From positions 1-62,139 of the IMG/VR virus record IMGVR_UViG_3300023179_000110: a stretch of 62,139 nt of DNA. The stretch is one strand, 5' to 3'. The translations under genes and the position numbers were made by a program. Under the pieces are notes generated by a model, which was not told the DNA's origin, made no database searches, and saw nothing but the letters and a program-made list of their open reading frames with translations. Every line of letters begins with the position of its first letter. Position 1 is the first letter of the stretch. Below, piece by piece: positions 4,541-42,867 of this stretch. The stretch is from a virus (lineage: Duplodnaviria; Caudoviricetes).

Positions 4541-4933
4541 TTAGTTAGCCCGTGTAGCGTTGGCACAGTTGATAACGGCTGTAACAACATTTCCGTCTGC
4601 TCCAGAAGCAGTAATCAATGAACCGACAACATACTTGGTGGTATCTGTTGTGGTCAAAGCAACTGCTTTACCTGTAGCACCAGTACCGATTGCACTTGGA
4701 AGCGTGATTGAAGCACCAGCGACAACCTTGGTTCCACCTACAATTAGAACTTCTGCTTCTTGACCTGAAATTGGTGCGTTCTGAAGAACTCCAACAGGAA
4801 CATCGGTAGCGGCCGCAACGGCAATAGCCTGACCACTTGAATTCAACTTAACAAAGTTGTACTGCTTTGCGGAAAGGTCTTCACCTGCAACAAGTGTCAC
4901 CTTTACGCTGTAATTACTGAACTCGTATGCCAT
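4541..4933 (-). CDS. Capsid decoration/cement protein (DUF2190-like)
   Basis: AGEDL..YNFVKL...PVGVLQN...GQEAEV...GTKVVAG; immediately before the capsid gene. Confidence 0.8.
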   Translation of the reverse strand: MAYEFSNYSVKVTLVAGEDLSAKQYNFVKLNSSGQAIAVAAATDVPVGVLQNAPISGQEAEVLIVGGTKVVAGASITLPSAIGTGATGKAVALTTTDTTKYVVGSLITASGADGNVVTAVINCANATRAN

Positions 4934-4938
4934 GGTAA

Positions 4939-5706
4939 TTAGGCACCTTTCTCGTTTAGGTACTGTGCGTACAGTGATGGTTCGGCAGATGCTACTTCAG
5001 CAAAAGCCTGTTCAAATGTGTTTGCTTCACCAGCAGAAACCATGGACTTAGCCATTGCTTCCATCTGAGAAAAAGCATTTCCCGTATTGGCTGAAGTGCG
5101 ACCAATTTCGGCAAAAATGTTTGCTGATTCAGCCTGAGAATTAACACTCTCAAGAACTGCTTCAACTGATTTTGCAAGAACAGCATCGGTTTCTGCCAAC
5201 TTACGAAGGGCAGGTCCAACATGTTCTGCGTCTAGTGAAAGGTGTGTCCATGAGCGAGCCTTAGCAACAGCCTCTGCATCTGCACGGGCATCACGCTCTG
5301 ACTTCAAAACGGCTTCAACTTCTTCAGCCTTAGCAACTGCTTCTTCCGCTTGCTTACGCAAAACTTCAAAAGCCTTCTGCACAGGCTCTGGGGCTGACTT
5401 AATTACTTCATCGGCTTCATCAGCAGGAGCCTTAACTTCTGCGTCAACCTCTGTTGCTTCCTCAAGTTCAGCAATTCTTTCTTCTGCCTTTTGAAGCAAA
5501 TCCATTGCTTCTTCAAGACGGTTTTCAATGGTTTCCGACATTGATTCCTCCTGTTTGATAACGGATGATTCAAGAATTTCACGAACAGCATCTGAATCGG
5601 CTGATTTCATAACTAGCCAACCATCATGCAAATGTGCAGGACGGTCAACTCCACTGGTTTCCTCAATGTCGAGATTAACCATCTTGCGAGTTGTGGTGCG
5701 AGCCAT
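4939..5706 (-). CDS. Scaffolding protein with XkdF-associated N-terminal motif
   Basis: LDIEETSGVDRPAH...VMKS N-terminus, acidic coiled coil, C-terminal PSLYAQY; many hydrophobic-x-K-(A/S) sites. Confidence 0.75.
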   Translation of the reverse strand: MARTTTRKMVNLDIEETSGVDRPAHLHDGWLVMKSADSDAVREILESSVIKQEESMSETIENRLEEAMDLLQKAEERIAELEEATEVDAEVKAPADEADEVIKSAPEPVQKAFEVLRKQAEEAVAKAEEVEAVLKSERDARADAEAVAKARSWTHLSLDAEHVGPALRKLAETDAVLAKSVEAVLESVNSQAESANIFAEIGRTSANTGNAFSQMEAMAKSMVSAGEANTFEQAFAEVASAEPSLYAQYLNEKGA

Positions 5707-5809
5707 AACATCCTCTGTTCCGAACATGCAGGTTTAACTGCAAATCTTGACTTGCTCAAAATTAACACAAATCAATTACACTGAGGGTTCGACTTTCGGC
5801 GTGTCTTAT

Positions 5810-6004
5810 TTATCTACCTTGGTAAAAACCAGTGGTTGCACCAGTTGGATTAACTTTAGTAGCACCAGTAATTGTTCTTTTTGTGGCACCATTACCAATG
5901 CGTAAATTTAAAGTTGTTTGATTTGTAACCGCAGTAACAATCGCATGATACACACGACCAGATTCACGATAACGAACTGAAGTGCCAGCCTGAAAAACTT
6001 GCAT
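5810..6004 (-). CDS. Small hypothetical protein
   Basis: TAATG-coupled to dps; 64 aa. Confidence 0.6.
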   Translation of the reverse strand: MQVFQAGTSVRYRESGRVYHAIVTAVTNQTTLNLRIGNGATKRTITGATKVNPTGATTGFYQGR

Positions 6005-6501
6005 TACATCCCCAAACTAGAACGAAGTTGCCAATCCCATTTTTTATGCATGTCAATGCGTTCAGCAAGAAAATTTGCAATTCCTTGCTCATTAGATGAG
6101 TTTGCAGAAGCGAAAGCCATGTTTAATGTGTTAATAAGTTGAAGGTTTGCCTTCTGCAAATCTGATGCCATGGAACGGGGGTCATCAGCAGAACCAATGG
6201 TGGTTTCTGGCAGGGTTCGGTAAGCAATAAAATCTGACAACTTAAATGGTGCATCAACGCCAAGTTTCAACATGTTTTCAGCCATAGGGTCAATTGAACT
6301 GTAAACATCTTCATAAATAGATTCAAAAAGTTCGTGGTATTGAGCAAAATCCGAACCTTTAACATTCCAATGAAAGCCATGAGCACGAGTGTAAAAAGTG
6401 ACAACATCAGCCAAGGCTGTACGCAATAACGAGGCAACATCGCCAACGGCTTTATTCATCGCTCCAAAAGGAACATAATCACTATCGTTAGTCAGAAACA
6501 T
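6004..6501 (-). CDS. dps: Dps family ferritin-like DNA-protecting protein
   Basis: HGFHWNVKGSDFAQYHELFESIYE...IDPMAE and ERIDMHKKWDWQL are Dps signatures. Confidence 0.9.
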   Translation of the reverse strand: MFLTNDSDYVPFGAMNKAVGDVASLLRTALADVVTFYTRAHGFHWNVKGSDFAQYHELFESIYEDVYSSIDPMAENMLKLGVDAPFKLSDFIAYRTLPETTIGSADDPRSMASDLQKANLQLINTLNMAFASANSSNEQGIANFLAERIDMHKKWDWQLRSSLGM

Positions 6502-7267
6502 CTTCGTCAGACACCTTTACATCTTTTTTGGGCTTCTTCTTTTGCCCACCCATAACAGTATCCACATGAACAGTGTTCACTGTAGGACCCGACACGGTAG
6601 ATGAACTGTCTTCTTTAGCAACTGGCAAATCAACTTCAAGACGCTGGGCACGACCACCAATCGAATAACCCATCAACTTTCCAGCCTTGACCATTTCCCA
6701 AGCCCAAGGTTCCCAAACAACGCCAAGGAAAACTGTGTCTTTAGGAAAAGTTACATCTTCCATGGTTCCGTCAGATTTCTGCATGGGAACTGATACTTCG
6801 TAAGGCCACGCCATTACTTCAACCCATTCACCAGCAACGATGTCTTTATTGTGCTGTAAACGAATACGGCGGTCATCTTTACGCACATAATCCCAAACTG
6901 ATTTCTGCAACTCAGCAGAATCTGTCCATTCACCATGAGCATCAACACGGTCAGGAACATACATTGGACCTAGGGTGTATCGGTTTTCGTTGACAGCCTT
7001 GGAAACCAAAGACATTTTTTTAACTGGTGTTTCGATAAATTGGTCAAAAAATCCTTCGCTGTAGGAATCCTCAATGTCATAGTCGGCATCGCCCCATTCA
7101 GCAGGAATAGCCATAGCAATGTCGTAATTTTTTAAAGATTGATAAGTTTCTACAAGGTCATTGTAAATTTTTTTTGTTTCTTCGTTAGAAACATACTTAC
7201 TATTAGACGCTTCAATTCCTGCACAAACTTCCTGCGTCATTAAATCAATAATGCGAGCATCAATCAT
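6488..7267 (-). CDS. XkdF-like putative prohead serine protease with ~85-aa N-terminal extension
   Basis: RYTLGPMYVPDRVDAHGEW...RLQHN...WEMVKAGKLMGYSIGG is the XkdF pattern. Confidence 0.85.
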   Translation of the reverse strand: MIDARIIDLMTQEVCAGIEASNSKYVSNEETKKIYNDLVETYQSLKNYDIAMAIPAEWGDADYDIEDSYSEGFFDQFIETPVKKMSLVSKAVNENRYTLGPMYVPDRVDAHGEWTDSAELQKSVWDYVRKDDRRIRLQHNKDIVAGEWVEVMAWPYEVSVPMQKSDGTMEDVTFPKDTVFLGVVWEPWAWEMVKAGKLMGYSIGGRAQRLEVDLPVAKEDSSSTVSGPTVNTVHVDTVMGGQKKKPKKDVKVSDEDVSD

Positions 7268-9327
7268 TATTTAACTCCCCCTTTCTTAGTTGATGCAATC
7301 AAAACTGGCGGTGCCCCTTCGGGGCGAGTGTCATGATTTGTGTCGAATAACACAAAATTATCAAACTCTTTTGACATCTTTGGCATTATTGAAGACACAG
7401 ATTTGTGATTAGCCAAAAAATTATTTGCTGGAACTAATCCACGATTAGGGTCTTCAATCGCCCTTTGCATGTTTTGTTTCCAAGCCAAATCAATACTTGC
7501 ACTTACATAACAACCGTTAACTTTGTATCCAGCGTTTCTCGCTTTAGCAATTTTTTTGCCCAAACTGGCTTCACTTGAATTTCCAGTTCCATCTAAGAAA
7601 ATGTCCATGCCAGCCTTGGTAGCGGCCGCATCAATTGCTTTACCCAAATCAGATGATTCTTCGTGCGTCCAACCTGCAACATCCAATTTTCTGCCATTGT
7701 CAACAAATACTTGAAAATCTGGCAATTTTGCTTTTAACTCATCCGCATCAATAATAACAGCCTTGCCTTTTTCTGGCAAAATTACACCATGTTCTTTGGC
7801 TAACTCAAGGGCTTGTTGATTCCTTCTAATCGTTCCTTTTCCAGAACCGCCACCGCCACCCATCATGGTAAAAGTTGGGTCACTAGAACGAGGAATTCCT
7901 TTTAAGGCTTCTTTAATAATTTCGGCGTGTAAAGCCTCACGCTCAGGAGTGTAAATGTAATTACCATTTCCATCGTCCATCAAATAATGCCAAAGACCAG
8001 TTGTGTCAGCCGAAATTTCCTCGCCTTTGTATGTAATAGTGCGAGGTTTCGCCAAAACTTCTGGACGATTGCTTCCGTAACCCCAATCGTAGGTTTCAGG
8101 GTCAAAAGATTCGTTTCTTTTAACCTCAACTACATTTTGAGTTTTTAAAAATTCAGCCCATCGGTTATTTAAATCAGAAACAGTTGTTCTATCAACTGAT
8201 TTATTAATAAAATTTTGCCAAGCAGTGCTGTCGTGAATTTCAAGACCGTCAGCAAAGTTTTCACTTGCACCGCCATGTGCCCAGTTTCCGTGCGTTTTTT
8301 GGTCGTGATGTCCATGTTTCAACAATGGAACCGTGCTTAACTGAGGTATTACTGGGTCAACTAAAAGACGGCGATACCTGCGTTTTGCACCATTTAAAGC
8401 ATCAAAAAATCCTGCGTCTGTAACAATTTGGTCAGCATAAACTGGGCTGGTTGACCAATGCTGATTTTTACGGAATTCGTCTAACAATCCATGCAATTCT
8501 TCATGTCGTTTCATGACAGCAGGAATGGCAAAAGGGTTTGAATTCGTGCGTTTTAACTCAAGTCCTTGACCGTAGCCCTCGTTGTAAGACAACCGAATAG
8601 ATTTTTTACTTAAAGTTTTGCCAATCATTTGAAAATCAGAAGCACTTACAGAAGAGCCATGTGCCCAATCGCCGTGAGTTGATTGGTCGTGTTTGCCTTG
8701 CATGTGCTTAGACATGCCATTTAACAAATCTTCAGGAATCACCCAGAACTTGCACAAAGCCATGTGGTCAATTTGACCTTCAACAATCTCACAACCGCCA
8801 CCGCCTTCATAAAAAATGCAGTTGGCACACATCAAACCTTCATCAACAAACGGGTTATCTTCCATGTAATGTGCCCCGTTAGCATCTGAACTCTGATTAA
8901 ATTTGCCAACCGCTTCGGTTAAAGATTCCAAAAACTCGTAAATAGCATTTTGCGTGGGGTTTAATCTATCTTCGGGTTCGCCCTCTTTTTTAACGGTATC
9001 AAACTTTAGGGTGTAGCCATCAACCGTCAAAATAGTGGTTTTTGAAACTAAATCGGGATAACCCAACTCAGCATTGACCGTATCAACTACATCAGCAGGA
9101 ATTCCGTTAAAAGCCTTATTTACGGGGACATTGTTTTCAACGCCTACCTCAATAACAGCCCGATTCCATTCGTCCCCACTATGCCCATGGTCTAAACCAC
9201 GAACCAACAATTCCGTTGTAACAAGGTGGTGGGCTTGAACTTTTACGGGGTCATAAACATCCGCATGCAATGATTTATGCAATTCCTCTAATTGAGCATT
9301 GCTTAATTTGTTTAAATCAAATGACAT
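7267..9327 (-). CDS. Tagged polyprotein: His-rich N-domain, HiPIP-like domain, tag + unknown domain, tag + Zeta-toxin-like P-loop kinase
   Basis: CANC...C...C HiPIP pattern; two HDQxTHGxW tags; GGGGGSGKGT, IIDADELK, HEESS, LDGT Zeta motifs. Confidence 0.85.
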   Translation of the reverse strand: MSFDLNKLSNAQLEELHKSLHADVYDPVKVQAHHLVTTELLVRGLDHGHSGDEWNRAVIEVGVENNVPVNKAFNGIPADVVDTVNAELGYPDLVSKTTILTVDGYTLKFDTVKKEGEPEDRLNPTQNAIYEFLESLTEAVGKFNQSSDANGAHYMEDNPFVDEGLMCANCIFYEGGGGCEIVEGQIDHMALCKFWVIPEDLLNGMSKHMQGKHDQSTHGDWAHGSSVSASDFQMIGKTLSKKSIRLSYNEGYGQGLELKRTNSNPFAIPAVMKRHEELHGLLDEFRKNQHWSTSPVYADQIVTDAGFFDALNGAKRRYRRLLVDPVIPQLSTVPLLKHGHHDQKTHGNWAHGGASENFADGLEIHDSTAWQNFINKSVDRTTVSDLNNRWAEFLKTQNVVEVKRNESFDPETYDWGYGSNRPEVLAKPRTITYKGEEISADTTGLWHYLMDDGNGNYIYTPEREALHAEIIKEALKGIPRSSDPTFTMMGGGGGSGKGTIRRNQQALELAKEHGVILPEKGKAVIIDADELKAKLPDFQVFVDNGRKLDVAGWTHEESSDLGKAIDAAATKAGMDIFLDGTGNSSEASLGKKIAKARNAGYKVNGCYVSASIDLAWKQNMQRAIEDPNRGLVPANNFLANHKSVSSIMPKMSKEFDNFVLFDTNHDTRPEGAPPVLIASTKKGGVK

Positions 9328-9364
9328 TTGAACTCCTCACCGAAAGAATAGCAAACAAGGTTGA

Positions 9365-9436
9365 CTATTGAGGTTCCATCGGCTCAGGCAATTTTCTTGG
9401 GTCAATAATGTCCACTATTTCGTCTTTTTCGGTCAT
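9365..9436 (-). CDS. 23-aa peptide MTEKDEIVDIIDPRKLPEPMEPQ, putative zincin inhibitor
   Basis: Translated by hand; ATGA overlap with the stop of the 9433-10224 zincin. Confidence 0.55.
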   Translation of the reverse strand: MTEKDEIVDIIDPRKLPEPMEPQ

Positions 9437-10224
9437 ACTGGTATTCCTTTGTCTAAATAACCCTGTCTTAAATTATCAGCAACTTCTTTACCTGCCACAT
9501 GCTCCCAAATAAATAATTGATTACGAGCAAATTCAACTCCGTGACCTTCGTATTTATTATCCGCTTTTAACATGGTTGCATAGTGAGCAAGTTCATGAAT
9601 TAAGGTTGATTCATCTTTTGCATAATTTTTGTGAATCAAAATTTCATTAATTTCTTGATAACCTTTACTGCCACTTATTTTTATGCCCCAGCGATGCCTA
9701 CCAGCAAAACTGCCAGACTTTCTTACTGCTATTTTTAACTCAGGAACACGAGAACCATCGCCAAATTCAGCAATAAACCAATCACTGCTGGTAATTTCTT
9801 TGTAAAGATTTTTAATACCTTTTACTGTTCCATCAATGTGTTTTTTACCTAATTCTGAAACTTGTAAATCGTTTGCTGAAGACTGCCAATCGTCAAAATT
9901 TTTACTGTATTGCGTCCACGCCTTTTCGTATGCCTCATAAGAATCAAAATTTTCTCGTTTGGGTGCAACTGGAGGAGTTCCACTATCACGGTCAAATACT
10001 TCAGATTCAGCCTTGTAAATGTCACTTTGATAACGGTCTGAACCCAATTGCAAATCAACTCTGTCCCGAAAAACCAAATTACTACCAGAATCATTGACAG
10101 TTATGTCGTTGTTAGCCCAGTTGCCATGAGTCCTTTGGTCATGTTTGCCAGCAAGATGCTTGAAAACATTATTATTTTCTTCATCTATTAAAAACAAAGA
10201 CATTCTTTCTTTTAATTCACTCAT
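9433..10224 (-). CDS. Tagged SprT-like HExxH metallopeptidase
   Basis: Tag VFKHLAGKHDQRTHGNWA; LIHELAH...HGVEF. Confidence 0.85.
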   Translation of the reverse strand: MSELKERMSLFLIDEENNNVFKHLAGKHDQRTHGNWANNDITVNDSGSNLVFRDRVDLQLGSDRYQSDIYKAESEVFDRDSGTPPVAPKRENFDSYEAYEKAWTQYSKNFDDWQSSANDLQVSELGKKHIDGTVKGIKNLYKEITSSDWFIAEFGDGSRVPELKIAVRKSGSFAGRHRWGIKISGSKGYQEINEILIHKNYAKDESTLIHELAHYATMLKADNKYEGHGVEFARNQLFIWEHVAGKEVADNLRQGYLDKGIPV

Positions 10225-11129
10225 TTAATAAAAACGCCTTCTTCTTCTGTATTAAAATTTTTTGATGCAACAATTAACGGGTCATAAGGCAACTGATTTT
10301 GAATCACTGTTACTTCATAAAAATTATCGTTGATTTTTTCAACTTTTGAAACCGTGTATGTACCAGAAGCAATAACTTCATTGCCGTTTGACACTTCTTC
10401 GCTTTTATTGCTTGTATGTGGAACTAATGGTATTCCACGCAATCCATCAATTTTCATTAAAATGGATGTTTCTGCTGGGTTGCCATAATAATCTTTTGCA
10501 AAAGTTGTTGCCAGTTCTTCATCAGGAGTCCAAGATGCAATTCCTTCTTTAAATGTGGAACCAACCGTTGTTAATTTTTTAACTTGTTCAGAACCCCATT
10601 TACTGAAAGACAAACCTCTGTACATTTTTTCATTTAATGGTTTAGCGGTTGTCAAGGCTAAAAGAATTTGTTTAGTTGAATCAAAAATTTCTTTGTAGTC
10701 AACATCTCTTCTTATTTTGCCATCTTCATCTAATTTTGGATAATAATTGTCTGAAACATTAGTTAATACTCTGTAAGCACTACGAATGTTGTCAACATTG
10801 GCGTATGGGTATTTATTTGTTCCGCCTATCCAAGCATCAGCAAAAGCATTAATCATTGGAATTTGAGAATTATCAGCCCAGTTGCCGTGAGTTGACTGGT
10901 CGTGCTGACCTGCAAGATGTTTTTGAATTTTTTGCGTATCAAGCCAATCTAAAACATCCCCATTGGTCAAAGTAATAATTGAACTCAAAGACACTTTGCG
11001 ACCATCAGCCAATTGAAGCATGGTTTCAGGGGTCAATTCTCCGTCCCAAGACCAAGAACCGCCAAAATCAGGTGCAAGCAACTTAAACATAGTAACCCTT
11101 TTCAATGTGTTCCCCGACAACAACTTCAA
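10221..11129 (-). CDS. PDFGG domain + tag + R-S-E type ADP-ribosyltransferase-like domain (start probably ATG ~11090)
   Basis: MYRGL...IASWT...A..FA...NEVI..G..TV is the VIP2/exotoxin-type ART pattern. Confidence 0.8.
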   Translation of the reverse strand: MKLLSGNTLKRVTMFKLLAPDFGGSWSWDGELTPETMLQLADGRKVSLSSIITLTNGDVLDWLDTQKIQKHLAGQHDQSTHGNWADNSQIPMINAFADAWIGGTNKYPYANVDNIRSAYRVLTNVSDNYYPKLDEDGKIRRDVDYKEIFDSTKQILLALTTAKPLNEKMYRGLSFSKWGSEQVKKLTTVGSTFKEGIASWTPDEELATTFAKDYYGNPAETSILMKIDGLRGIPLVPHTSNKSEEVSNGNEVIASGTYTVSKVEKINDNFYEVTVIQNQLPYDPLIVASKNFNTEEEGVFIK

Positions 11130-14100
11130 TGCCTTTGCCAGCCAACATTTCCTTAGTAGCCTTAGTCAAACTTGTTGATTTTGGAATAACAATTGTGGCA
11201 ACATCATCCAACGATAAACCGCCATGAATTTGAGTTTCAACATAACCGTAAGTAGCAATTTCTCTTAAATCAGCCTTGCCACTGTATCCAGTTATTCCAC
11301 CCCACTCTGGTTTTCCAGTACTAATGCTGTTTTTCCAATTGTAAGTTTTGCCAGAACGATTTGAATTGTTAAAAGTGTTAATTAATAAGCCAAAATGAGT
11401 GTCCCATAAATCATTTACAGAAACTTTGCCATTAGCGTAATCTTCCAGCCAATGAGTTCCATTAAGAAATCCGTCTAAAGAATCGCCAATTGTTGCTGTT
11501 GTTCTATGTTTTACCGAATCTTTAAAAATTACTTGGGCATCGCCATAAGTTGATTCTTTAGAACTGCGTCCTATGACTCCGTAAACGGGACGCTTATCGT
11601 TAGGTGTTTCGCTCGGAATGCCCATAATGTCAAATTCAAATTCATTTCTTCTTTCCATGTATTTTTGCCTAGTAGCCCCTTTTCCAGACAAAGTGGTTTC
11701 ACTAGCAGTTCGATAATGGTCTTCAGTTATGAATTTTTTTAATTTACCTGTACTCATGGTTAAAGAAACATCATTATTATTTGCAATTTCTTGCATTTGG
11801 TCTAACAAACTTTGAGCCACGCCATCTATGACTTCGCCAACAGTTTGCCCACTTGGAAATTTAATTTGACGAATTTTATTTTGAACAAATTTATTTTCCG
11901 CAACAAGATAAGCCCGTGCTGATTGAAAATCTTGTTCAGCCCAAACATTTATGGCTTTTCTTCTCAACTCATCAATGTTTGAATCAGAAAATTCTTTGTT
12001 TTGTTCAATAATTTGTTTTGCCCACCAAGTATTTGCAATAGCCGTATCCATAAATTTTTTAGGGATTTGAGGATAATTTGGGTCGTTAAAAATGGTTTTT
12101 GTCAATTTTTTTATTGCGTCTAAACCCGAAAAATTTTCGGAACTTTTGGATGAATTTTTTAATGCTAAAACCGCATAATAAAATTCTGCTGTGGAAACAG
12201 GTGTTCCAACCCAACTTGTAGAATCTGTTTGCAAAATTCTTGCAATAGGTCCGAAACTGTTAGCAACATCTTCTTCATAAGACATAGCAGGAATTGAAGA
12301 AAAACTTTTTTTTCGCCCTGAAAAATCTAACTCATAAGGTCTGTCGGTTGAATGACCGTGTGCCCAGTTGCCATGACTGGACTGGTCGTGTTGTCCTGCA
12401 AAATGTTTAAAAAAAAACGAATTTACTGGAACCTTGACAATTACTGAGGTTTTGGCAACTTCTTGTAAATCTGTTCCGCCCAAGTCATAATTTCCTCGTC
12501 CGTCATCTCGTTTAACGGCTTCGGCGACTGAGCGATGTTGATTATTTCTTTTTTCGACTGTTCCACCAGTACCTCCTGTTTGAATCTCATCAAAGTTGAC
12601 GACATCCCAAATACTGATTTGGTTACGCCTTCTACCTAACGAAATTGCTTGTTTCTTGTCAACGATTTTGTCCGTAACATCCAAATGAACTCGTTGCTGG
12701 TCTTTTGGTATTTCTACCGTAACACCATTAACCGTTTTGGTTGTTTCGTGCCAAACACCGAGATAAGCACGACCAGAACCTAATTCTGCTTTGTTCTTAA
12801 CCAAGAACGCACCCAGAATTTTGGCTCCTTTATCCTCATTAAAGAAGTCTGATGCCATTACAACGGTGCCGAACTTGTCACTGTTTCGAGATACCATGTA
12901 GCCATCTGGGGGCAGTGAGCCGTCCGTTAACTTGATTGATAAACCACCATTTTCGGCTACTTGACTCAAAACATCATGAACAACTTCTGGTGCAACATGG
13001 CTGTTGAACCTGCGTCCGTGAGTTGATTGGTCGTGTTGACCTTGAAGGTGTTTCTCAACCTCGGTTGATTTAATCTTAGCCCGTAATACCGCAATGTCAA
13101 ATGCCAACATTTTCTTCATGTTTTCTTTATTTGACTCACCAAGAGCAATTGGCTTAATTCCAACGGTTTTATTCCAAGCCAAAACAACTTTAATTAATTC
13201 GTCATGAGGCAAATCAACTTTTAAAGCCTTCATTTTCACATTTTTATGTTTTGGTTTTAAACCAAGAAACAAAGCGGCCGCCCAGCGATGGTGTCCGTCA
13301 ATCACATAATCATCTTTAGAAATAGTAATTGGAGTATCACCAACTCCATCTTTTTCCATTGACCGCATAATTTTTCCAGATTTAGAAGCAGAAATTTCAG
13401 CCTGAATTGGGTGTAGTCCAAAGGGAGCAACATCAACCATTTCAACTTTAACTCCACGGTCTTGCATAGCCTTAATAAAATCATTTTGAGTTCCAGCAGG
13501 AATTTGAGGCATTTTGTCACGCATAATTCCAAGATTGTCCCTTGTGAAATACTGCGTTCCTAAAATTTCCAAATTAGTTAAATCGGGATTATCTTTGCGG
13601 TCAGCCATTGCATCCAACCATGCTGGAGCGTCAATTGGGCTAACAATACCTTCTTCGCCAGCAACTACTTTGTCGTAAGCGGTTTGAACTGGATGTGGAT
13701 ACGGATTGCCTTCGGCAGTGTTTTTACGGTCAACAGCATGTCCGTGATGTCCAGCCCAGTTGCCATGCGTGGCTTGGTCGTGCTGACCTGATAAATGTTT
13801 TTGAACTGCTTGCGGATAGTAAGACCATTCGTACAAAGAATTGCCATCAGTGTAAATTTCATTAGCGTGAACTGTGGTGTGCAAAATGTCGTAATCACCA
13901 AAACGAGCAGTCACACTACTTTCGCCATGTAATTTGGCGTATTCTTCGGAAATAGTAACCCAATCACCAGCATTAACTTTAGTAACGCCTTTGGGTACAG
14001 CACGATAAATGGTCACATGAGCATCGGGTTTATTACGAATACTTACAAGCAAATCATGGATTTTTTTATCTTCAGCCCTATTACTGCCACCGTGCCCATA

Positions 14101-15059: not shown

Positions 15060-15128
15060 AAAACCTCCTGAAATACTAAACAAGAATACCTCAGAAGCAT
15101 TACCTCAAAAGGTCAACTCGCTTTAGAA

Positions 15129-15314
15129 CTAAACAGTATTTTCATTCCCTTGATTGAGCCACCATTCAAGAGCATCACCATTGGTGCGACTAATTATGTG
15201 ACTAAATAAAGTTTCTGACCCATCAGCAACAATAATTTTAGTTTCAGGAGTCAACTCACCGTCCCAAGACCAAGAACCGCCAAAATCAGGGCAAATAACT
15301 TTATGTTGGCTCAT
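15129..15314 (-). CDS. 61-aa PDFGG protein, putative partner/immunity of the upstream DUF3626-like domain
   Basis: PDFGGSWSWDGELTPET...DG...II..TNGD.L.W, nearly identical to the N-domain of 10221-11129. Confidence 0.8.
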   Translation of the reverse strand: MSQHKVICPDFGGSWSWDGELTPETKIIVADGSETLFSHIISRTNGDALEWWLNQGNENTV

Positions 15315-16843
15315 CCTTCTAACCCGTAACTTTCATAATCGGTTTTTTCAATTTGACTAATGTTAGGTTCAATAATTATTTTAATTCCTTGTTTTGTTAA
15401 CTTATTTTGCAATGCTTTAGGAATCGCCGTTTCGCTAGTAATAATAACTTCAGCAATGTCAGATGCTTTAACACCACCATGAACTTGTGCTTCCACATAA
15501 TTGTACATAGTGCTTTGTTTAAAATCATTTTTAGAACCAGTAATAAATTGGTTAACATCAAGATTTGAATTTGGATTATCATTTTTGACAGAAGTAAAAT
15601 TCAATTCATAATTTCTGTCATAAATTGACCTAGTGGTCATTTCGCCAGAATAATGCCAAAAAGTTTCAGGTGAAATTTTGCCGTCCCTGACTTCGGAAGC
15701 CAAAAAACCACCTTTTGCATTGCCATCTAAAGAATCATCAACAGTTAAAGTGGTTCTACTTTTAACTTCATCTTTTAAAACAATACGAACATCGCCATAA
15801 TTAACAGTATTTGCATTTGCCAAATAGCCGTAAACAGGTCGTTGCTCATTTGGAATGTCTTCTGGAACTCCCATAAGCGTTTCAGCCCGTTTACGAACTG
15901 CAATGTAATCATTTCTTGTACTGCCTTTGCCTACAGATGTAACTTCATAAACTGTTTTAAATCTTCCATCATCTATTAAACGCTTTAATCGTGAAGCAGA
16001 TGTTTGAATTGTAATTGGTTGTTCTGTAGCCATTTTTTTCAATTTACTCAATTGAGATTTAGCCAACCCGTCCATAATTTCTTTAATGGTTTCACCCGAT
16101 TGCATTTTAATTTCGCCAAGTTTTTTAATAACAAAAGCATTTTCTTTTAAAGCATACTGTCGAAATTCTTCCGCAGAAACAACTTTATTTAAATTATGAA
16201 ATTCTAATTCTTGTTCACCGTACATACCGCCTTTAGGCATTGGTGGGTCAACTAAACCTTCATCACGAGTAGCCCATCTGTACTGGATACTATTTCGCCA
16301 TTCTTCAAGTTGCCATTTTTGCCATCTTTCTTCCCATTCTTTAGGCATAGCAGGATAATCAGGGTCAGATTTTATTTTTTCTAAAACCCTATTTTTGTAA
16401 TTTCCCCAATCTCTCCATTTTCCTTCTTCAAGGTAAGTCGCCTCTTCGCCTGTCTGTTGTGCGTAGCGACTATTAGCCAAAGTAAGCATTGAAGCAAAAT
16501 AACCATCATAAGTTCTTTTATTTAAATCTAAAGGTATGGCATGAATGTTTGGGTCGCTTATTTGAAAATAATCATACAAATCTCTGGTAATGCCACCGAA
16601 GGAATAAATTTTGTCATCGTATCTACCTAGTAAAGTTCCTTTATGATAAGCCAAAATCGGTTTAAGTTCATACGGCATTTCGCCATGTGCCCAGTTACCG
16701 TGGGAACTTTGGTCATGCTGACCTGCCAGATGCTTGACCAAACTTAAAGGAGGAACAACAAAAATTGTTTTAGCCACAGGTTTATCTAAGCCAAAAGTAC
16801 AACCAATTTTTTGACCCGAAAACATTGGAGGACTTTGCAACAT
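15311..16843 (-). CDS. Tagged DUF3626-like (putative ART-fold) protein
   Basis: Tag; RFKTVYE...RPVYGYL..YGDVRIVLKDEVKSRTTLTVDDSL...YVEAQVHGG. Confidence 0.85.
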   Translation of the reverse strand: MLQSPPMFSGQKIGCTFGLDKPVAKTIFVVPPLSLVKHLAGQHDQSSHGNWAHGEMPYELKPILAYHKGTLLGRYDDKIYSFGGITRDLYDYFQISDPNIHAIPLDLNKRTYDGYFASMLTLANSRYAQQTGEEATYLEEGKWRDWGNYKNRVLEKIKSDPDYPAMPKEWEERWQKWQLEEWRNSIQYRWATRDEGLVDPPMPKGGMYGEQELEFHNLNKVVSAEEFRQYALKENAFVIKKLGEIKMQSGETIKEIMDGLAKSQLSKLKKMATEQPITIQTSASRLKRLIDDGRFKTVYEVTSVGKGSTRNDYIAVRKRAETLMGVPEDIPNEQRPVYGYLANANTVNYGDVRIVLKDEVKSRTTLTVDDSLDGNAKGGFLASEVRDGKISPETFWHYSGEMTTRSIYDRNYELNFTSVKNDNPNSNLDVNQFITGSKNDFKQSTMYNYVEAQVHGGVKASDIAEVIITSETAIPKALQNKLTKQGIKIIIEPNISQIEKTDYESYGLEG

Positions 16844-16849
16844 ACTAAA

Positions 16850-18529
16850 TCACTTCTTCCATTTGTACTGCATACCCCATTTATCTTCTTTAGCCAAAGC
16901 CTGAACAATAGGAATTTCAGACTTACCATCAGTCATAAACCATTCAGCAAACGCTTCAGCATAACCCTCGCCAGTATTGCTTCTACCATACGGACTTAAC
17001 TGATTTTCATGAGCCATTAACATTAAACCTGTAGTTTGTTCGTTTTTGTAACCGCTTCCAGCCATTGTTCCATTGCCACCTTTATGGAAAAGGGCATCGT
17101 AATTAGTTGCATGACCCCATTCATGAGCCAAAAAGTATTCCATAGCAAAAAATTGTTTGGCATTGGCTGAAGGCATCCAACTCTGACGAGCCGTATCTTC
17201 ATCAGCGTAATGATTCATGTCTTCAGGACGAACAGCAATAATAACTTTGTGAATTGCAGGTTTTACTAATTCACGAACAGTTCTAAGTTGTTTTTCATCA
17301 AATACCGTTTTCATTGTTTCTGGTTGAGATAAATTAACAGTCCAACCTCGTTGCATTTCGGAATCGTAATCAAAATCATTACTTACAACAATTTTTACTT
17401 CAGACATTGGTGACAACGGTGCAATTGTTTGCAAATCATGAACTAAAGCCAACACATCTCGTTTTTGGTCTTCAGTAATGTTGTCCCTGTTGTCAAAAAA
17501 AGTTGCAAAACTAGAACCGTTAATTTTCGATTCATGAACATCAGCGTTTTCAAGTACAAGGTCATTTACGCCAAAAGCATGCCTAAAATTAGTTTTTGTT
17601 TTAGCCCAATTGCCGTGGGTAGATTGGTCATGCTGACCTGCAAGATGTTTACTTACATCAGGCAACTCAATAAAAGAAGGGGGTGGTGTTTTACTAAAAG
17701 TATCAGCAATTAAAATACTTGAACCCATAGTTTTAACTAAATTAAAAACACCAGTATCCCAACCATACTTTGAAGCCATTTCTTGAACATGAGGCAAAGA
17801 GGTTTGTCCAGCCGAAAAAAACCATTCCGCAAAAGCCTCAGCATAAGACTCCATTGTGTTTTCCATCCCATAAGTAGTTTGTCCTTCTTTTTTCCATTTC
17901 CATTCTGATTTGCTTTGAGCAAGATAATTTTTGTATTCATCATGAGCCAACTGGTCATCAACGAGTTGGCTTTGTGTTCTTTTATCAAGAGCGTGACCCC
18001 ATTCGTGGGCTAAAACAGACATGATGTAATTTGCTTTTGAATCTGCACGGGCAGGGTCGCCTCCCCATAAATTATGTTCTTCCTGTATTGCTGTTTCCAT
18101 ACTAAGAACTATTTCGCCTTTACCCAAAGTACAAAAACCTACAACACCAGACAAATGACCTTTGGCTTTGTAGTCTTCCATTTTGCTGTCATCAAATTCA
18201 ACACGCATTCCTTCAATTGGAAAATGCGTTTGCAATTCGGCAATAGTTTGATAAATAAGTTTTTTTGTATCATCACTTATTGTTCCATTTACTTCTTCAA
18301 AACCAACAAAAACTCTAGGAAATTCACCAGAAACGATAACATCGTGAGCAATGCCCACCAGTGTTTCATCAGTTATGTCTTGTACTGTGTATTTTGCTTC
18401 GCCATGTGCCCAGTTTCCGTGCGAACTCTGGTCATGCTGTCCAGCAAGATGTTTATTTACAGATAAAGAACGCAACCAAAAAGCATTAGCACCAGCATCA
18501 ATGTCAATTATCAACTTAACCACCACCAA
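16850..18529 (-). CDS. Tagged polyprotein with two lethal-factor-like HEWGH metallopeptidase domains
   Basis: Two tags; LAHEWGH ... YG..N..E.YAEAFAEW occurs twice. Confidence 0.88.
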   Translation of the reverse strand: MVVVKLIIDIDAGANAFWLRSLSVNKHLAGQHDQSSHGNWAHGEAKYTVQDITDETLVGIAHDVIVSGEFPRVFVGFEEVNGTISDDTKKLIYQTIAELQTHFPIEGMRVEFDDSKMEDYKAKGHLSGVVGFCTLGKGEIVLSMETAIQEEHNLWGGDPARADSKANYIMSVLAHEWGHALDKRTQSQLVDDQLAHDEYKNYLAQSKSEWKWKKEGQTTYGMENTMESYAEAFAEWFFSAGQTSLPHVQEMASKYGWDTGVFNLVKTMGSSILIADTFSKTPPPSFIELPDVSKHLAGQHDQSTHGNWAKTKTNFRHAFGVNDLVLENADVHESKINGSSFATFFDNRDNITEDQKRDVLALVHDLQTIAPLSPMSEVKIVVSNDFDYDSEMQRGWTVNLSQPETMKTVFDEKQLRTVRELVKPAIHKVIIAVRPEDMNHYADEDTARQSWMPSANAKQFFAMEYFLAHEWGHATNYDALFHKGGNGTMAGSGYKNEQTTGLMLMAHENQLSPYGRSNTGEGYAEAFAEWFMTDGKSEIPIVQALAKEDKWGMQYKWKK

Positions 18530-19721
18530 AATGACTCATGATGCCAGCCAAAGCAGACCTAGGTTGACTTACCCAAACATTTGCTTGAATTGTTCCACCA
18601 AGTAAAACATGTTCTTGTTCAACTTCTGCACCTAACCCAGTAGCGTAAGTAGAAAAAACATTTTCTACAGGAACTACAATTTTAGTAACAGCATTGCCAA
18701 AAGTTTTAGCCACACTTTCCTTACTTGTCCAGCAACTCAAAGGTTGCATGCGAATTGTTTGTTTTGATTCTGTTCCATACAAACTTTCATCAAGTAAATC
18801 AAAGCCACGCCATAACTCCACAGCCTTGATGCCTTCGTCAGCAAAAGTTTTTTGAGTTTCCTCATACATAGCCGTAGTAATAGACTGCAAAACATTATGA
18901 TTTTTAACTAAAATTTTTGCAACTTGAGATGCAATTTTTTCAGGATGCCCAGTAACAAAAGTATTTTTCAACCCAAAATCCTCACGGACGACATCATTTA
19001 ACGCATAATACAAAGGATTAGAGTTCTGCAACTTAGCCCATTGTTCCATGACTTCAACAACAGCAAATTGCTTAATCATTTTTTCTTTTTGAGCAACAGT
19101 TTGCGTTTTATTATTAGTTCCATTTAAAGAAGAATTAGTTCTATCAACCCAAAGAGTGTTGTAATAAGACCATTTAAAAACAGCGTTAGGGTCATTGATG
19201 GCTTCTATTATTTGTTGAGGAGTTGTAAAAGTTGCAGTTCCTCCTGTTTTTACCGATTCTTCAGATACATAATTGATGCCATTAGAAAAACCTTCTGGAA
19301 TAATCATTGGTGTATTTAAAAATTCTTCAATAGGAACATCTGTAAGATGTTTTACAACATTGTTGGATGCAATCCATACCGTTTTATCTTTAGATGAAAA
19401 ATTACTGGAATTGCCAACTTGTTCATAAAATTCTTTAGTTGATGGTCTGGGAGCAATACTGTAATAATCTGCTTCAACATCATGTTGTGCCCAGTTCCCG
19501 TGTGAACTCTGGTCGTGTTGTCCTGACATGTGCTTGGCAAAAGCATCAACTACTGTCCAATTACCAACTTTTTGCCATTTATCAAATAGCCCAACTGTGC
19601 TTGTTGTGCCATTTTTCTGGCGTAAATACCCGTATGGATAACCGTCAGCATCAACGAAATCAAAAATCAACTCGGCTCCGTCAGCCCTTACAGCGTAAAC
19701 ACTACCTTTGGTTAGTTCCAT
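18516..19721 (-). CDS. 60-aa N-domain + tag + R-S-E ADP-ribosyltransferase-like domain
   Basis: LWRGF...LSCWTS...A..FG...EQEHVLL (ExE). Confidence 0.82.
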   Translation of the reverse strand: MELTKGSVYAVRADGAELIFDFVDADGYPYGYLRQKNGTTSTVGLFDKWQKVGNWTVVDAFAKHMSGQHDQSSHGNWAQHDVEADYYSIAPRPSTKEFYEQVGNSSNFSSKDKTVWIASNNVVKHLTDVPIEEFLNTPMIIPEGFSNGINYVSEESVKTGGTATFTTPQQIIEAINDPNAVFKWSYYNTLWVDRTNSSLNGTNNKTQTVAQKEKMIKQFAVVEVMEQWAKLQNSNPLYYALNDVVREDFGLKNTFVTGHPEKIASQVAKILVKNHNVLQSITTAMYEETQKTFADEGIKAVELWRGFDLLDESLYGTESKQTIRMQPLSCWTSKESVAKTFGNAVTKIVVPVENVFSTYATGLGAEVEQEHVLLGGTIQANVWVSQPRSALAGIMSHFGGG

Positions 19722-19723
19722 AA

Positions 19724-22700
19724 TTAATACTCTACCACCCTAATTCCCTTGGGAACAAGAGGGCTGATGTCAGCAAAACTGTCGGAAGGAATGTAAACAG
19801 CCTCAACATCACTCAATTTTGCTCCATCGTGAATTTGGGCTTCAAAATAAGAACCTTCATTAAGAAATCCAATTTCATAAGATTCATTGTTCCAGCCTTC
19901 GTCTTTTGCTATGTTGTACAGAATTCTGTCTGAGGCTCGCCAAGCATCGTAAGGGGTAATTTCTTTTTGAGTCATAGAAACAGGAATGCAACCAGTTCCC
20001 AAAGAATCCCCAACTGTCACGGTTGACCGAGGTTTAACATTATCTTTAAAAACTATTCGGATGTCGCCATACTGCCACGGTCCATTAATTAAAACATTTT
20101 CATCTAAATCATCTTCCGAAACATAACCATAAAGAGGGCGTTTAGAAACAGGTTCGTTTATGGGAATACTTTGACAACGCAACTCACTAGCAAGACGGCT
20201 TGCTTTACTAAATAACCCATTGCTTTTTTGTGTTTCAAATTGTGTTTTAAATCTTTGGTCATCGCTTTGTAATAACTCAGTAAACGATTCTTCGTCAATA
20301 GCCATGCAAATTTTTCCATCTGTTTGCATGTTTTTTAAATCATCAGCAATAAAACTTTGATAAAGCAACTCAGAATTATCTAATTTGCGATAAGTGGCTA
20401 ATTTAACTACTTCGTCAGATAATCTACGAAGCATTGCTTCATACATAATGACTGCGGAATTGTCTTGAGTAATAACTAAAGCATTTCTTTCCCCCTTAAA
20501 TGTGTTATCGTCACCACCACCAGTTTTTAAAAAAACAGCATTTGGATAAACTTTTTTAACTTGTTCTTGCAATTCTTTGCAAATTTTAGAATTAGCGAAA
20601 TCATCTGTATGAAAAAATTGCACCAGTATGTCTTCAGATAAACTTCCAGCACTTAACTGATAAGAGTCTGTACTAATTTTGTCAGCCAAATCAATAGAAA
20701 ATTTCTTAACAGCATTTAAAAATGTTGTTGTGTCAGCAAAATCATGTACCGCACCGTGCGACCAATTGCCGTGAGTGGATTGGTCATGTTGTCCTAAATA
20801 ATGTTTTGACAATGAACTTGGATTAGTCAAAACAGAAGTAAACGCATCTACTCGGTCAAACGGAATTGGCAAATTTGTTTTTTCATAGCCATCAAAATCC
20901 AAACGCCAATTGTCAACGGGGTCATAACGAAAACGAACAATTCGATAATTGTCCCCATTGGTAGGAGCGTAAAATGCTCCCGTTGAACGATGACTGGCAA
21001 CTGTTCCTTCGTTATTATCCAAATTCATTCTGGCATCTGATTGAAAAAATCCTCGTTCTTTTGCTTGATTGAACTCGGCTTCCGATACGACACGGTACAA
21101 ATGTTTCAAAGGTTTTCGAGCAATAATTTTTCCGTAAATTGGAGAAGATACTCTTTCGGAATCTGGAACTTTAATCCATTCTTGCGGAGTTACTGCCATT
21201 ACTTCTAAAACTTCAGGAGCAGATTGACCATCCCGTGTAGAAGCCATACGCAATGCAGTTTGTCCTTCAATCAAGTTGCCTCTTGAATCGTATCTTTCAG
21301 GATGTGCATTACGAGGAGATTGTAAAGATTTAGATTCTTCCGTCAAAATAGCATTCCAAGCAGATTCATTATCGGGTGAATTTAATTGAATTTCTTTGCC
21401 ATCAGCCCAATTGCCGTGGGTAGATTGGTCGTGCTGACCAGCCAAATGTTTTTCAACTGAATTAGGATTTTTAACTACTAAAGCACCAGCATTTAAAACA
21501 ACCATTTCTCGGTCAGGCAAACTTGTATCGGCTGGGTCATAAAGCATTGGACTGTCATTAATTGCGTCATAGCCCATTGCCAAAGCCATAAGATTTCTAG
21601 TTGTTAATCTATCAGTAAAAAACCAACTTGTTGGAAAATCTGTTAAAGCCGTATGACGAAGTAAATTAATTTGAGATTCTAGCAATCCACTATTTGCCAA
21701 TACCAAATTTGCTTCAGAAGAAGGAATAGTTAAAATTTTTGCATTAGGTTTAAAAGCCATTTTAACTATTTGTTTTTCATCACTTTTGTAACCCCAAATT
21801 TCAGCCTCTTTTTTCGTATGAGCACCATAAAGACCAATTCCATTTCTACCCATAGAAATGTAAGGCAACTCCGAAGCCATAAATTGTTTGATTTTATCTT
21901 CAGCAGATAATCTAATGTTGTCTGAAGTTTCCAAATCAAAAGCAGAACCTTGCTGAAAAGTTCGCCAAAATTCCATACCCTGTGAAGTATCACCAAAAGT
22001 AGGTTTACCAGTTTTGCCTGTGGCTTTTAAAACATCTTGCAAAGTTTTACGCCAAACATCAAGGCTGTCGTATGGTTTATTCGCGTTAATTATTGACGCA
22101 AGTTGCTGAATGCTAATTTCATTTGACCCATCACCATCAGCCCAGTTACCGTGTGAACTCTGGTCATGTTTACCCTGAAGATGTTTAACCAAAAAAGACT
22201 TAACGGGAACTTTTACAATTACTGAAGATTTAGCAACATTATTTAATAACGCTTCAGTATCAATGTTTGAATACTGTTTAACCCAAGCAAGTTCTTGTTC
22301 ATACTCTGGAATTGGATTTCCGAAAAGTTCAAATTTTCCTCTTTCTCTAGCAAGTTTTATTTTTGTTGCTTTTTGTTCTCTTGTTGCTGGATGAGTACTT
22401 GGAAAATGAACAACAATTCCAGCCTTTGCACCTGCTTGAAGAATTTTTTCTTTATTTATTTTTGAAACTTGTCCGTTAATAATAATTTCTTGAACATCTT
22501 TAGGAGTTAAACCACCAAAAATTTGAAACTCTGGATAATCATCAGAGGTGGTGTAAATAATGTCATTTGGCAAACTTTCTTTGTCCCCTAAAATTTGTTC
22601 ATTAGTAATTTTACCTGTTGCTGAAACAGGAGTTTGCTGATAAAGCAAACTATCTGAATTAGTAAAAGTTGAGCGTTTTTTTACTTCATCTTTTAAAACA

Positions 22701-23113
22701 ACAAGCACCTCACCAAAATGTTCGGTAGCCCCCATCAAAAAAATACCGTTAGGTTCAATGGCAGAAGCAAAAATAGGCCGCATTGAAGCAGGAGCATCAA
22801 GAGGAATCCCCCAAGTTCTTAACTCTGATTGTTTTCTTCTATCAATCCCTAATGAACCTCTAGTTTCACCACTTTCGTGATAATTTTTGAACTTACCTTC
22901 ATTGAGAAAAGCCAAAACTGCTTCTTCTGGCATCTGAATACCCATAGTCGCGTCACGATGTTTTCTAAAATTTTCAAAATACCATTTATGAGATTGCCTA
23001 ATCATTGTTTTTAATTTTTGAGCATTACTATCAGCCCAGTTGCCGTGTGAACTTTGGTCATGTTGACCTGCAAGATGCTTGGATACGGGAACTACAACAT
23101 AAACAGATTTCAT
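19724..23113 (-). CDS. Tagged polyprotein with four cargo domains: DUF3626-like, PARP-like ART, ART-like, DUF3626-like
   Basis: Four tags; RPIF..FGEV..RSTFT.SDS..EFQIFGG; GIGLY..GYDAI..EMVVLN; LYRVVSEAEF; RPLYGY..YGDI..YFEAQIHDG. Confidence 0.85.
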   Translation of the reverse strand: MKSVYVVVPVSKHLAGQHDQSSHGNWADSNAQKLKTMIRQSHKWYFENFRKHRDATMGIQMPEEAVLAFLNEGKFKNYHESGETRGSLGIDRRKQSELRTWGIPLDAPASMRPIFASAIEPNGIFLMGATEHFGEVLVVLKDEVKKRSTFTNSDSLLYQQTPVSATGKITNEQILGDKESLPNDIIYTTSDDYPEFQIFGGLTPKDVQEIIINGQVSKINKEKILQAGAKAGIVVHFPSTHPATREQKATKIKLARERGKFELFGNPIPEYEQELAWVKQYSNIDTEALLNNVAKSSVIVKVPVKSFLVKHLQGKHDQSSHGNWADGDGSNEISIQQLASIINANKPYDSLDVWRKTLQDVLKATGKTGKPTFGDTSQGMEFWRTFQQGSAFDLETSDNIRLSAEDKIKQFMASELPYISMGRNGIGLYGAHTKKEAEIWGYKSDEKQIVKMAFKPNAKILTIPSSEANLVLANSGLLESQINLLRHTALTDFPTSWFFTDRLTTRNLMALAMGYDAINDSPMLYDPADTSLPDREMVVLNAGALVVKNPNSVEKHLAGQHDQSTHGNWADGKEIQLNSPDNESAWNAILTEESKSLQSPRNAHPERYDSRGNLIEGQTALRMASTRDGQSAPEVLEVMAVTPQEWIKVPDSERVSSPIYGKIIARKPLKHLYRVVSEAEFNQAKERGFFQSDARMNLDNNEGTVASHRSTGAFYAPTNGDNYRIVRFRYDPVDNWRLDFDGYEKTNLPIPFDRVDAFTSVLTNPSSLSKHYLGQHDQSTHGNWSHGAVHDFADTTTFLNAVKKFSIDLADKISTDSYQLSAGSLSEDILVQFFHTDDFANSKICKELQEQVKKVYPNAVFLKTGGGDDNTFKGERNALVITQDNSAVIMYEAMLRRLSDEVVKLATYRKLDNSELLYQSFIADDLKNMQTDGKICMAIDEESFTELLQSDDQRFKTQFETQKSNGLFSKASRLASELRCQSIPINEPVSKRPLYGYVSEDDLDENVLINGPWQYGDIRIVFKDNVKPRSTVTVGDSLGTGCIPVSMTQKEITPYDAWRASDRILYNIAKDEGWNNESYEIGFLNEGSYFEAQIHDGAKLSDVEAVYIPSDSFADISPLVPKGIRVVEY

Positions 23114-42858: not shown

Positions 42859-42867
42859 AACCGTAGT

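Follow-up and report, generated by a model that had tools for sequence, protein, structure and literature searches.

Hydrophobic-x-Lys before every cargo tag of an uncultivated 62-kb phage, a candidate cut site of its XkdF-type prohead protease

How are the long, many-domain cargo proteins of a phage resolved into single enzymes, and how are these brought into the head? The question is raised by the IMG/VR virus record IMGVR_UViG_3300023179_000110, which was analysed at its whole length of 62,139 bases (the window) and is a complete 62-kb uncultivated phage, completeness being a CheckV estimate. Nine minus-strand cargo open reading frames (ORFs), at 7267-23113, carry 17 copies of a 16-residue peptide, the tag, with the pattern H-x(1-4)-[H/G]-D-Q-x-x-H-G-x-[W/R]. 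Two small proteins at 40-41 kb carry one copy each, which gives 19 tags in the window. A sequence-only reading had proposed that each tag follows a hydrophobic-x-Lys cut site, at which the XkdF-type protease encoded at the end of the array would divide the polyproteins. In our study, we found the hydrophobic-x-Lys triplet before every tag and the tag at the boundaries of exchangeable cassettes, and a cut by the protease at this place is a plausible explanation.

The tags were located by a six-frame scan, in alignment A1 (18 rows) and by a profile search of the record. These three supported each of tags 1-17 except tag 4, which was placed by the scan, A1 and the rows from related loci.

23033-23086, minus strand: tag 1, VSK-H
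22139-22192, minus strand: tag 2, LVK-H
21404-21457, minus strand: tag 3, VEK-H
20759-20812, minus strand: tag 4, LSK-H, HYLGQ variant that travels with the DUF3626 cassette
19488-19541, minus strand: tag 5, FAK-H
18407-18460, minus strand: tag 6, VNK-H
17603-17656, minus strand: tag 7, VSK-H
16688-16741, minus strand: tag 8, LVK-H
14946-14999, minus strand: tag 9, LIK-H
14242-14295, minus strand: tag 10, VEK-H
13753-13806, minus strand: tag 11, VQK-H
13006-13059, minus strand: tag 12, VEK-H, ending HGRRF, without Trp
12361-12414, minus strand: tag 13, FFK-H
10875-10928, minus strand: tag 14, IQK-H
10114-10167, minus strand: tag 15, VFK-H
8662-8715, minus strand: tag 16, MSK-H
8278-8325, minus strand: tag 17, short form LLK-HGHHDQ
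41097-41150, minus strand: small-protein tag, LEK-H, in 40695-41204
40567-40614, minus strand: small-protein tag, LEK-HGSGDQ, with Gly instead of the middle His, in 40069-40677

The triplet [VILMF]-x-K (phi-x-K below, phi being the hydrophobic residue) was found before 19/19 tags, and the triplets were identical to those that the sequence-only reading had listed. Eight columns of A1 were invariant, K, H, G, H, D, Q, H and G. Since the Lys is itself an invariant column of the repeat, the 19 cases are copies of one family and not independent trials. In the DNA alignment of the 17 array tags, the synonymous positions of Lys, His, Leu, Gly, Gln and Asn varied, and Ser was encoded by both AGT and TCN. 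As the synonymous sites are free to vary, selection acts on the tag peptide and not on the DNA. A function of the tag at the DNA level (recombination signal or recent gene conversion) was ruled out because the synonymous sites differ, and self-cleavage by Asn cyclisation at H-G-N-W was ruled out because S, D or R may stand in place of the Asn. The AlphaFold2 (AF2) model of the 559-aa cargo ORF 3, made from a 20-row alignment, was weak (mean predicted local distance difference test score, pLDDT, 53.3); the tag segments, residues 1-43 and 270-328, were below 50 and the zincin cores between 65 and 84. As far as this model goes, the tags probably sit in flexible junctions.

The position of the tag at cassette boundaries was observed directly. 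A 245-aa cassette, with a tag ending NWADGDG and the C-terminus NAGAL...K, was found behind four unrelated upstream pieces, in the window and in loci L001, L002 and L003; the piece in L001 is a gene-start leader. A 354-aa DUF3626 cassette with the H-Y-L-G-Q tag variant was found behind four different upstream pieces, two of which are gene-start leaders. Tag variants move together with the domain behind them and pre-tag stretches with the domain in front; the evolutionary module boundary therefore lies at K-H, within one or two residues. To judge from these alignments, the phi-x-K kept by each of the non-homologous upstream pieces, leaders and enzyme tails alike, is a real and repeated constraint on the unprimed side. 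One and the same cassette was found to open its gene in some phages and to lie within a polyprotein in others, as is expected if fused and split genes yield identical end products. Every gene-start tag has a leader, and the shortest leaders place the K at residue 11-13 (window ORF 1, four ORFs of G001, a complete 172.5-kb record, and hand-calculated positions from the tag-profile matches). A tag that merely needed to be present would plausibly not require a leader. As in leaders of the T4 capsid-targeting sequence (CTS) type, the pattern of P3 and P1 (the hydrophobic residue and the Lys) ends an N-terminal leader, here with phi-x-K before all 19 window tags and leaders down to 11-12 residues.

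The tag was also found widely in other uncultivated viruses. When IMG/VR was scanned with a degenerate pattern, 70 distinct loci were found, in which up to 13 tags lie within 20 kb. The tag profile, searched against 1.84 billion cluster representatives, matched 899 proteins at a threshold of E <= 0.001 (257 of these at E <= 1e-10), among them a 7059-aa protein with 19 matched stretches and a 3023-aa protein with 10. Among 185,579 species, with one genome per species, one of 108 pattern matches was a confirmed locus, in a metagenome-assembled genome of Actinoplanes. The tag was not found in 50,697 cultured-phage records, where tblastn with a 36-aa segment gave only 28-bit helicase matches at E 6; the 1129-aa cargo ORF 1 matched three records by its DUF3626-like end only. 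The 18 tag peptides belonged to no Pfam family (two chance matches, E >= 0.17), the tag profile matched no PDB sequence (one chance match at E 1.3), and the motif strings were not found in the literature searched.

In the related loci L001-L018, 150 of 478 tag rows were counted by hand, duplicates from overlapping loci included; K preceded the tag in 150/150 rows and P3 was V, I, L, M or F in 144/150, the exceptions being T or A. The 7059-aa protein (P0001) has 20 tags by eye, with phi-x-K before 20/20. G001 gave 19 profile matches to the tag; in the 15 tags inspected, K was found in 15/15 and a hydrophobic P3 in 13/15. The G001 record has mostly one tag per ORF, and the element there is therefore an N-terminal leader plus tag and not a linker. 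The H-x4-H-x4-H pattern, which the sequence-only reading had taken as a possible metal-binding or ejection leader of each enzyme, had to be given up as a family feature. It was present in 17/19 window tags, the exceptions being 8278-8325 (K-H-G-H-H-D-Q) and 40567-40614 (K-H-G-S-G-D-Q), Gly replaced the middle His in 16/20 tags of P0001, and in G001 the Trp was mostly changed to Arg or Lys. Across these alignments the constant core is phi-x-K-H-x(1-4)-[H/G]-D-Q-x-x-H-G, and three His are not a defining feature. The P0001 protein also contained about a dozen paralogous repeats of a module resembling an ADP-ribosyltransferase (ART), with the motifs Y-R-G ... S-W-A ... E-D-E-F-I, GNAT-like modules, zincin modules and a single decayed tag (V-E-K-R-G-T-G-D-R-S-P).

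The two head genes that bear most on the cut are as follows.

6488-7267, minus strand: XkdF-type (assemblin-like) prohead protease; PF14550 at 5.6e-12, 46.2 bits against a cut-off of 24, residues 86-211
4939-5727, minus strand: scaffold protein with conserved N-terminal S-G-V-D-R-P-A ... L-V-M-K-S; phrog_13547 at 4.7e-58, 80 homologues kept

In the 29-row protease alignment A2, the N-terminal part was variable and K90, H139 and S202 were invariant. H139 and S202, the latter in G-Y-S-I-G-G, were present in 29/29 rows and are a candidate catalytic pair, a role that we assume by analogy with HK97 gp4. The AF2 model of the protease ORF (mean pLDDT 48.9) was too poor for active-site geometry or the placement of K90. 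A complex prediction of protease residues 80-245 (A2) with the tag peptide (A1), made without controls, scored 0.01 against a mark of 0.32 and says nothing about binding in either direction. Four of the 21 Lys of the protease lie in phi-x-K-[A/S]; K90 alone is conserved (29/29), and the other three vary. The K90 site has a hydrophobic P3 in 29/29 rows and A or S next in 28/29, and it lies at the junction of the variable N-terminal part and the conserved domain. The protease of Arthrobacter phage Edmundo has L-T-K-A at the equivalent place, behind a domain with two H-x-T motifs. K90 could be an autoprocessing site of the protease. In Edmundo gene 18 (L232, 14293-15405), the XkdF protease is fused behind this two-H-x-T domain, which looks 2H phosphoesterase or LigT-like; the fusion accounts for the 'RNA ligase' annotations of such proteases, and the protease may bring this attached enzyme with it into the head. 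The protease tail P-T-V-N-T-V-H-V-D-T-V-M (6548-6586) resembles the capsid N-terminal P-S-I-N-S-V-H-I-D-A-I-L (4477-4518). This tail motif is kept in most of the 29 proteases, and the pair of tail and capsid N-terminus recurs in locus L087; mimicry of the N-arm of the capsid protein may be the way by which the protease gets into the prohead.

In the scaffold, nine of the 15 Lys were found by hand in phi-x-K-[A/S], when about 0.9 would be expected from the composition if positions were independent, and the homologue in L087 has six such sites among 23 Lys. The excess is only suggestive, as helical i/i+3 periodicity inflates such counts. The recurrence of phi-x-K-[A/S] in other head proteins, claimed by the sequence-only reading, was thus borne out in part: the scaffold has nine sites (six had been listed) and the XkdF protein four, but the protease sites vary except for K90, and no weight is given to the one site each in Dps and in MuF. 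At the scaffold N-terminus (5608-5727), the conserved stretch is E-T-S-G-V-D-R-P-A-H-L-H-D-G-W-L-V-M-K-S, and the otherwise dissimilar scaffold of G001 (L233, 3514-3640) has V-S-A-V-G-N-P-A-T-G-K-D-F-L-L-Y-K-S at the equivalent place. We take this motif to resemble the last strand of HK97-type proteases, as if it were the remnant of an ancestral protease-scaffold fusion ending phi-x-K-S.

The co-occurrence of the tag with an XkdF protease was seen in both the window and G001. The G001 protease matched PF14550 at 1.6e-29 and was 27% identical to that of the window (E 5e-10). The G001 capsid protein had no BLASTP similarity to that of the window (best E 3.3), and no Portal_Mu or Phage_Mu_F match was found in G001 at E <= 1, in searches in which the window matched. 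Among the head components tested, the protease alone thus appears detectably common to the window and G001, with two limits: distant homologues may be missed by such searches, and G001 carries tags of a variant form. The short N-terminal motif of the scaffold is also common to both, by eye.

We propose that the XkdF-type serine protease at the end of the array would cut after the Lys of phi-x-K during prohead maturation. The hydrophobic P3 and the Lys at P1 would come from the upstream piece, and the tag would be the recognition or docking element on the primed side. The leaders would be removed and the polyproteins resolved into single enzymes. Each of these would then begin with the tag, which may double as a packaging or retention handle. 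We give this explanation, a cut by the XkdF protease before a docking tag that possibly serves in loading or retention, a little less than an even chance. The site of the herpesvirus assemblin, V/L-x-A-S, is a parallel in having a hydrophobic P3 and a fixed P1, and the cut of HK97 at Lys103/Ser104 is another. The claim that XkdF cuts the polyproteins at phi-x-K-H gained in plausibility from the cassette boundary, the unrelated upstream pieces that end in phi-x-K, the leaders of at least about 11 residues, the probably flexible tag segments, the shared protease, and the likeness of phi-x-K to the sites of T4 gp21 (I/L-x-E) and SPN3US gp245 (A-x-E); the cut, the enzyme responsible, and any targeting or metal-binding role of the tag are what we infer. 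The HK97 cut is an example of one after Lys. The sequence-only reading had called such cuts by phage head proteases established, which was not confirmed in the literature searched: the portions consulted held nothing usable on head proteases cutting after Lys, and those of a phage D3 paper gave no residue. Nor was a cleavage specificity of XkdF found in the portions of the literature consulted.

Several observations weigh against a cut by XkdF. The conservation on the primed side runs to about 15 residues, far beyond the known sites of the assemblin family, and the tag therefore does more than mark a cut and might do so uncut. The P1' residue of the tags, His, differs from the Ala or Ser at the candidate sites of scaffold and protease. 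K90 lies within the Pfam-matched region 86-211 and may be structural. At least four zincin peptidase domains in the array are alternative protease candidates; zincin domains were proposed as processing enzymes by Iyer et al., and the virion RNA polymerase of N4 is packaged unprocessed (both in the portion of PMC5512222 consulted).

The contents of the array are listed below.

19724-23113, minus strand: cargo ORF 1, 1129 aa, 4 tags, DUF3626-like domain at each end
18516-19721, minus strand: cargo ORF 2, 401 aa, 1 tag, DRAT-like ADP-ribosyltransferase (PF07357, 2.7e-7)
16850-18529, minus strand: cargo ORF 3, 559 aa, 2 tags, two HExxH zincin domains (HEWGH motifs; weak PF07737 match below the cut-off; AF2 model)
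15311-16843, minus strand: cargo ORF 4, 510 aa, 1 tag, DUF3626-like
14358-15083, minus strand: cargo ORF 5, 241 aa, 1 tag, HEISH zincin-like motif (from the translation; no Pfam family)
11083-14361, minus strand: cargo ORF 6, 1092 aa, 4 tags (no Pfam family at E <= 0.01)
10221-11129, minus strand: cargo ORF 7, 302 aa by the longest start, 1 tag
9433-10224, minus strand: cargo ORF 8, 263 aa, 1 tag, SprT-like zincin (PF10263, 1.6e-6)
7267-9327, minus strand: cargo ORF 9, 686 aa, 2 tags, untagged four-Cys N-terminal domain, zeta-toxin-like kinase (PF06414, 3.6e-20)

A long conserved core and flanks that are rich in Gly, Ser and Asn or of low model confidence would also suit an uncut cargo-loading or anchoring peptide, which would bind a component of the prohead and tether the domains of an intact polyprotein, phi-x-K being part of the binding motif. 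Encapsulin targeting peptides and the tail of the HK97 protease would be its analogues. Avidity would rise with the number of tags on a chain, and the unprocessed N4 polymerase is a precedent. We consider such an anchor unlikely, as the phi-x-K comes from unrelated upstream pieces and gene-start leaders are at least about 11 residues long; a 7059-aa chain with 19 tags would be awkward as a single packaged and ejected molecule, and the capsid protein, Mu-type portal and MuF are not common to the window and G001. The cargo might instead be cut by its own zincin metallopeptidases, in the head or after injection, with the His- and Asp-rich tag as the recognition site. Zincin domains are present in ORFs 3 (two), 5 and 8, two are found in P0001 and several in G001. 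The link of zincins to the tag is one of co-occurrence only, and the domains behind most tags are not peptidases; a hydrophobic P3 together with a fixed P1 is the signature of the assemblin type, and zincins usually read P1'. We regard cutting by zincins as quite unlikely, with the note that such processing was proposed in the model of Iyer et al. (section 8 of PMC5512222, a source consulted in part).

Two further explanations place the function of the tag elsewhere. In one, the cut falls after the tag, and leader and tag together are a removable capsid-targeting propeptide like the CTS of T4, the internal tags being left on the upstream C-terminus or excised. The T4 targeting sequence lies upstream of its cut, and the tags of G001 often end in Arg-Arg or Arg-Lys, but the tag variants co-segregate with the downstream cassette, the residues past H-G are variable, and no conserved P3/P1 pattern is present at the distal end. 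A cut at that end is improbable in our view. Roles of T4 propeptides are mentioned in the portion of PMC10052503 consulted. The other explanation denies the tag any part in cutting or packaging and sees in it no more than a flexible linker that binds metal, or a joint at which modules are shuffled. The tag does have His, Asp and His, and cassettes recombine at tags. Eight invariant residues would not be expected of such a linker, its middle His is Gly in most tags of P0001, and variable synonymous sites mean that the DNA is not the conserved thing. We hold little belief in a passive linker.

Several known systems resemble the proposed cut by XkdF before the tag, among them that of T4. The internal proteins and Alt of T4 have a short N-terminal capsid-targeting leader of about 10 residues. 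The T4 gp21 system shares with the proposed one a hydrophobic P3, a fixed charged P1, an assemblin-like protease, and head-packed, injected enzymes that include an ADP-ribosyltransferase. Gp21 cuts after I/L-x-E (PMC12991175, consulted in part). In the window, unlike in T4, the putative P1 is Lys and not Glu, the conserved element follows the putative cut and stays on the product, and the sites recur inside polyproteins. Encapsulin cargo-loading peptides and the C-terminal targeting tail of the HK97 protease likewise bring enzymes into an HK97-fold shell by a short conserved peptide on a flexible linker. They differ in being usually C-terminal, present once per protein and not cleavage sites, and they have no sequence similarity to the tag. 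In giant phages, many head and ejection proteins lose N-terminal propeptides to the prohead protease. In SPN3US this protease is gp245, whose cuts after A-x-E take propeptides of 20-254 residues off such proteins, and the sites of gp245 and of phiKZ gp175 are A/S/G-x-E with Ser preferred at P1' (PMC10052503, portion consulted). These are three-residue sites without a long primed-side tag, and the substrates are separate proteins and not beads-on-a-string polyproteins. The polyvalent proteins of Iyer, Burroughs, Anand, de Souza and Aravind (2017, PMC5512222), which belong to phages and conjugative elements, resemble the array in having zincins, ARTs and kinases beside MuF and portal, and processing was predicted for them; assemblin-like peptidases are placed at the C-termini of polyvalent proteins in section 8. 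The portion of the text consulted does not mention a conserved inter-domain tag or a phi-x-K site, and the supplementary domain files might list the tag.

The array holds what is typical of polyvalent proteins, several conflict-related enzyme domains in one chain: a kinase, a SprT-like zincin, a DRAT-like ART and DUF3626 (below the cut-off), in ORFs of up to 1129 aa with up to four tagged modules. As in the phage type, portal, MuF, the nine cargo ORFs and the XkdF protease follow in order, with MuF and protease unfused. The cargo enzymes are presumably packed in the capsid and injected with the DNA. Polyvalent cargo, prohead proteases, and targeting or processing signals are known kinds of element; the long junction tag with the constant phi-x-K before every cargo domain was matched by no Pfam family and no PDB sequence, and the portions of the literature consulted do not describe it. 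Since 2017, when polyvalent proteins were described, the resolution and head loading of this cargo have stayed at the level of prediction; the motif now offers a site defined in sequence, at which mutations can be made and their effects assayed. A candidate specificity, phi-x-Lys, may be assigned to the XkdF protease family, for which none was found in print in the portions consulted. If the element is a combined cleavage and loading signal, the mature injected effector set would be predictable from sequence (for the 899 cluster representatives that match the profile), the apparent tolerance of fusion and fission of cargo genes would be explained, and a small tag would be available for loading foreign proteins into phage capsids. 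In its furthest form, phi-x-K and tag would be a portable 'cut-and-load' code, in which XkdF docks and cuts before the tag and the exposed tag holds the enzyme until ejection. We think so complete a code rather doubtful. If true, any domain behind the tag would become an injected effector, and the code would explain why cassettes are shuffled freely and why polyproteins reach 7059 aa; it would be a phage counterpart of encapsulin targeting peptides.

The N-terminal 204 residues of cargo ORF 9 (8716-9327) are untagged, contain C-A-N-C ... C ... C, end in F-W-V-I-P-E-D-L-L and have a weak match to phrog_2859. The same ending was found at a similar distance before the tag in six related loci (L004, L005, L007, L008, L009 and L013). 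In the window, ORF 9 directly precedes the protease gene. The two small tagged proteins lie beside the large terminase gene, distant from the cargo array.

40695-41204, minus strand: small tagged protein beside the large terminase, with a helix, an LEK-H tag and a Gly-rich stretch; no PHROG family
40069-40677, minus strand: second small tagged protein; no PHROG family

They are paralogous, and each has an N-terminal helix leading to L-E-K, the tag, a Gly/Ser/Asn-rich stretch and a C-terminal domain.

The minus-strand gene order in the window is terminases, two small proteins, portal, MuF, the nine cargo ORFs, XkdF protease, Dps, scaffold, decoration and capsid. The remaining genes of this order are the following.

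41254-43392, minus strand: small and large terminase
24123-25574, minus strand: portal protein (PF06074 Portal_Mu, 5.6e-39)
23110-24117, minus strand: MuF-like minor head protein, untagged (PF04233, 1.3e-9); its stop overlaps the start of cargo ORF 1
6004-6501, minus strand: Dps/ferritin-like protein, untagged, inside the head module (PF00210, 3.3e-14)
4541-4933, minus strand: head decoration-like protein (weak PF23982 match; position conserved)
3550-4527, minus strand: major capsid protein (phrog_1005, 2.4e-100)

Dps was ruled out as the partner of the tag, being absent from its place in L087, where the gap between protease and scaffold is occupied by an unrelated 134-aa ORF. The closest cultured relatives of the protease are those of Arthrobacter phages (genus Laroyevirus) and of one Microbacterium phage, with 42-67% identity over the domain. 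Because these phages infect Arthrobacter and Microbacterium, the host of the window phage is probably an actinobacterium. In the Laroyevirus and Microbacterium relatives, the portal, MuF and protease genes are adjacent, without a cargo array between them. Directly upstream of the portal gene in the window (25647-27228) are a C-5 cytosine DNA methylase gene (PF00145, 8.4e-72) and a second methyltransferase-like gene.

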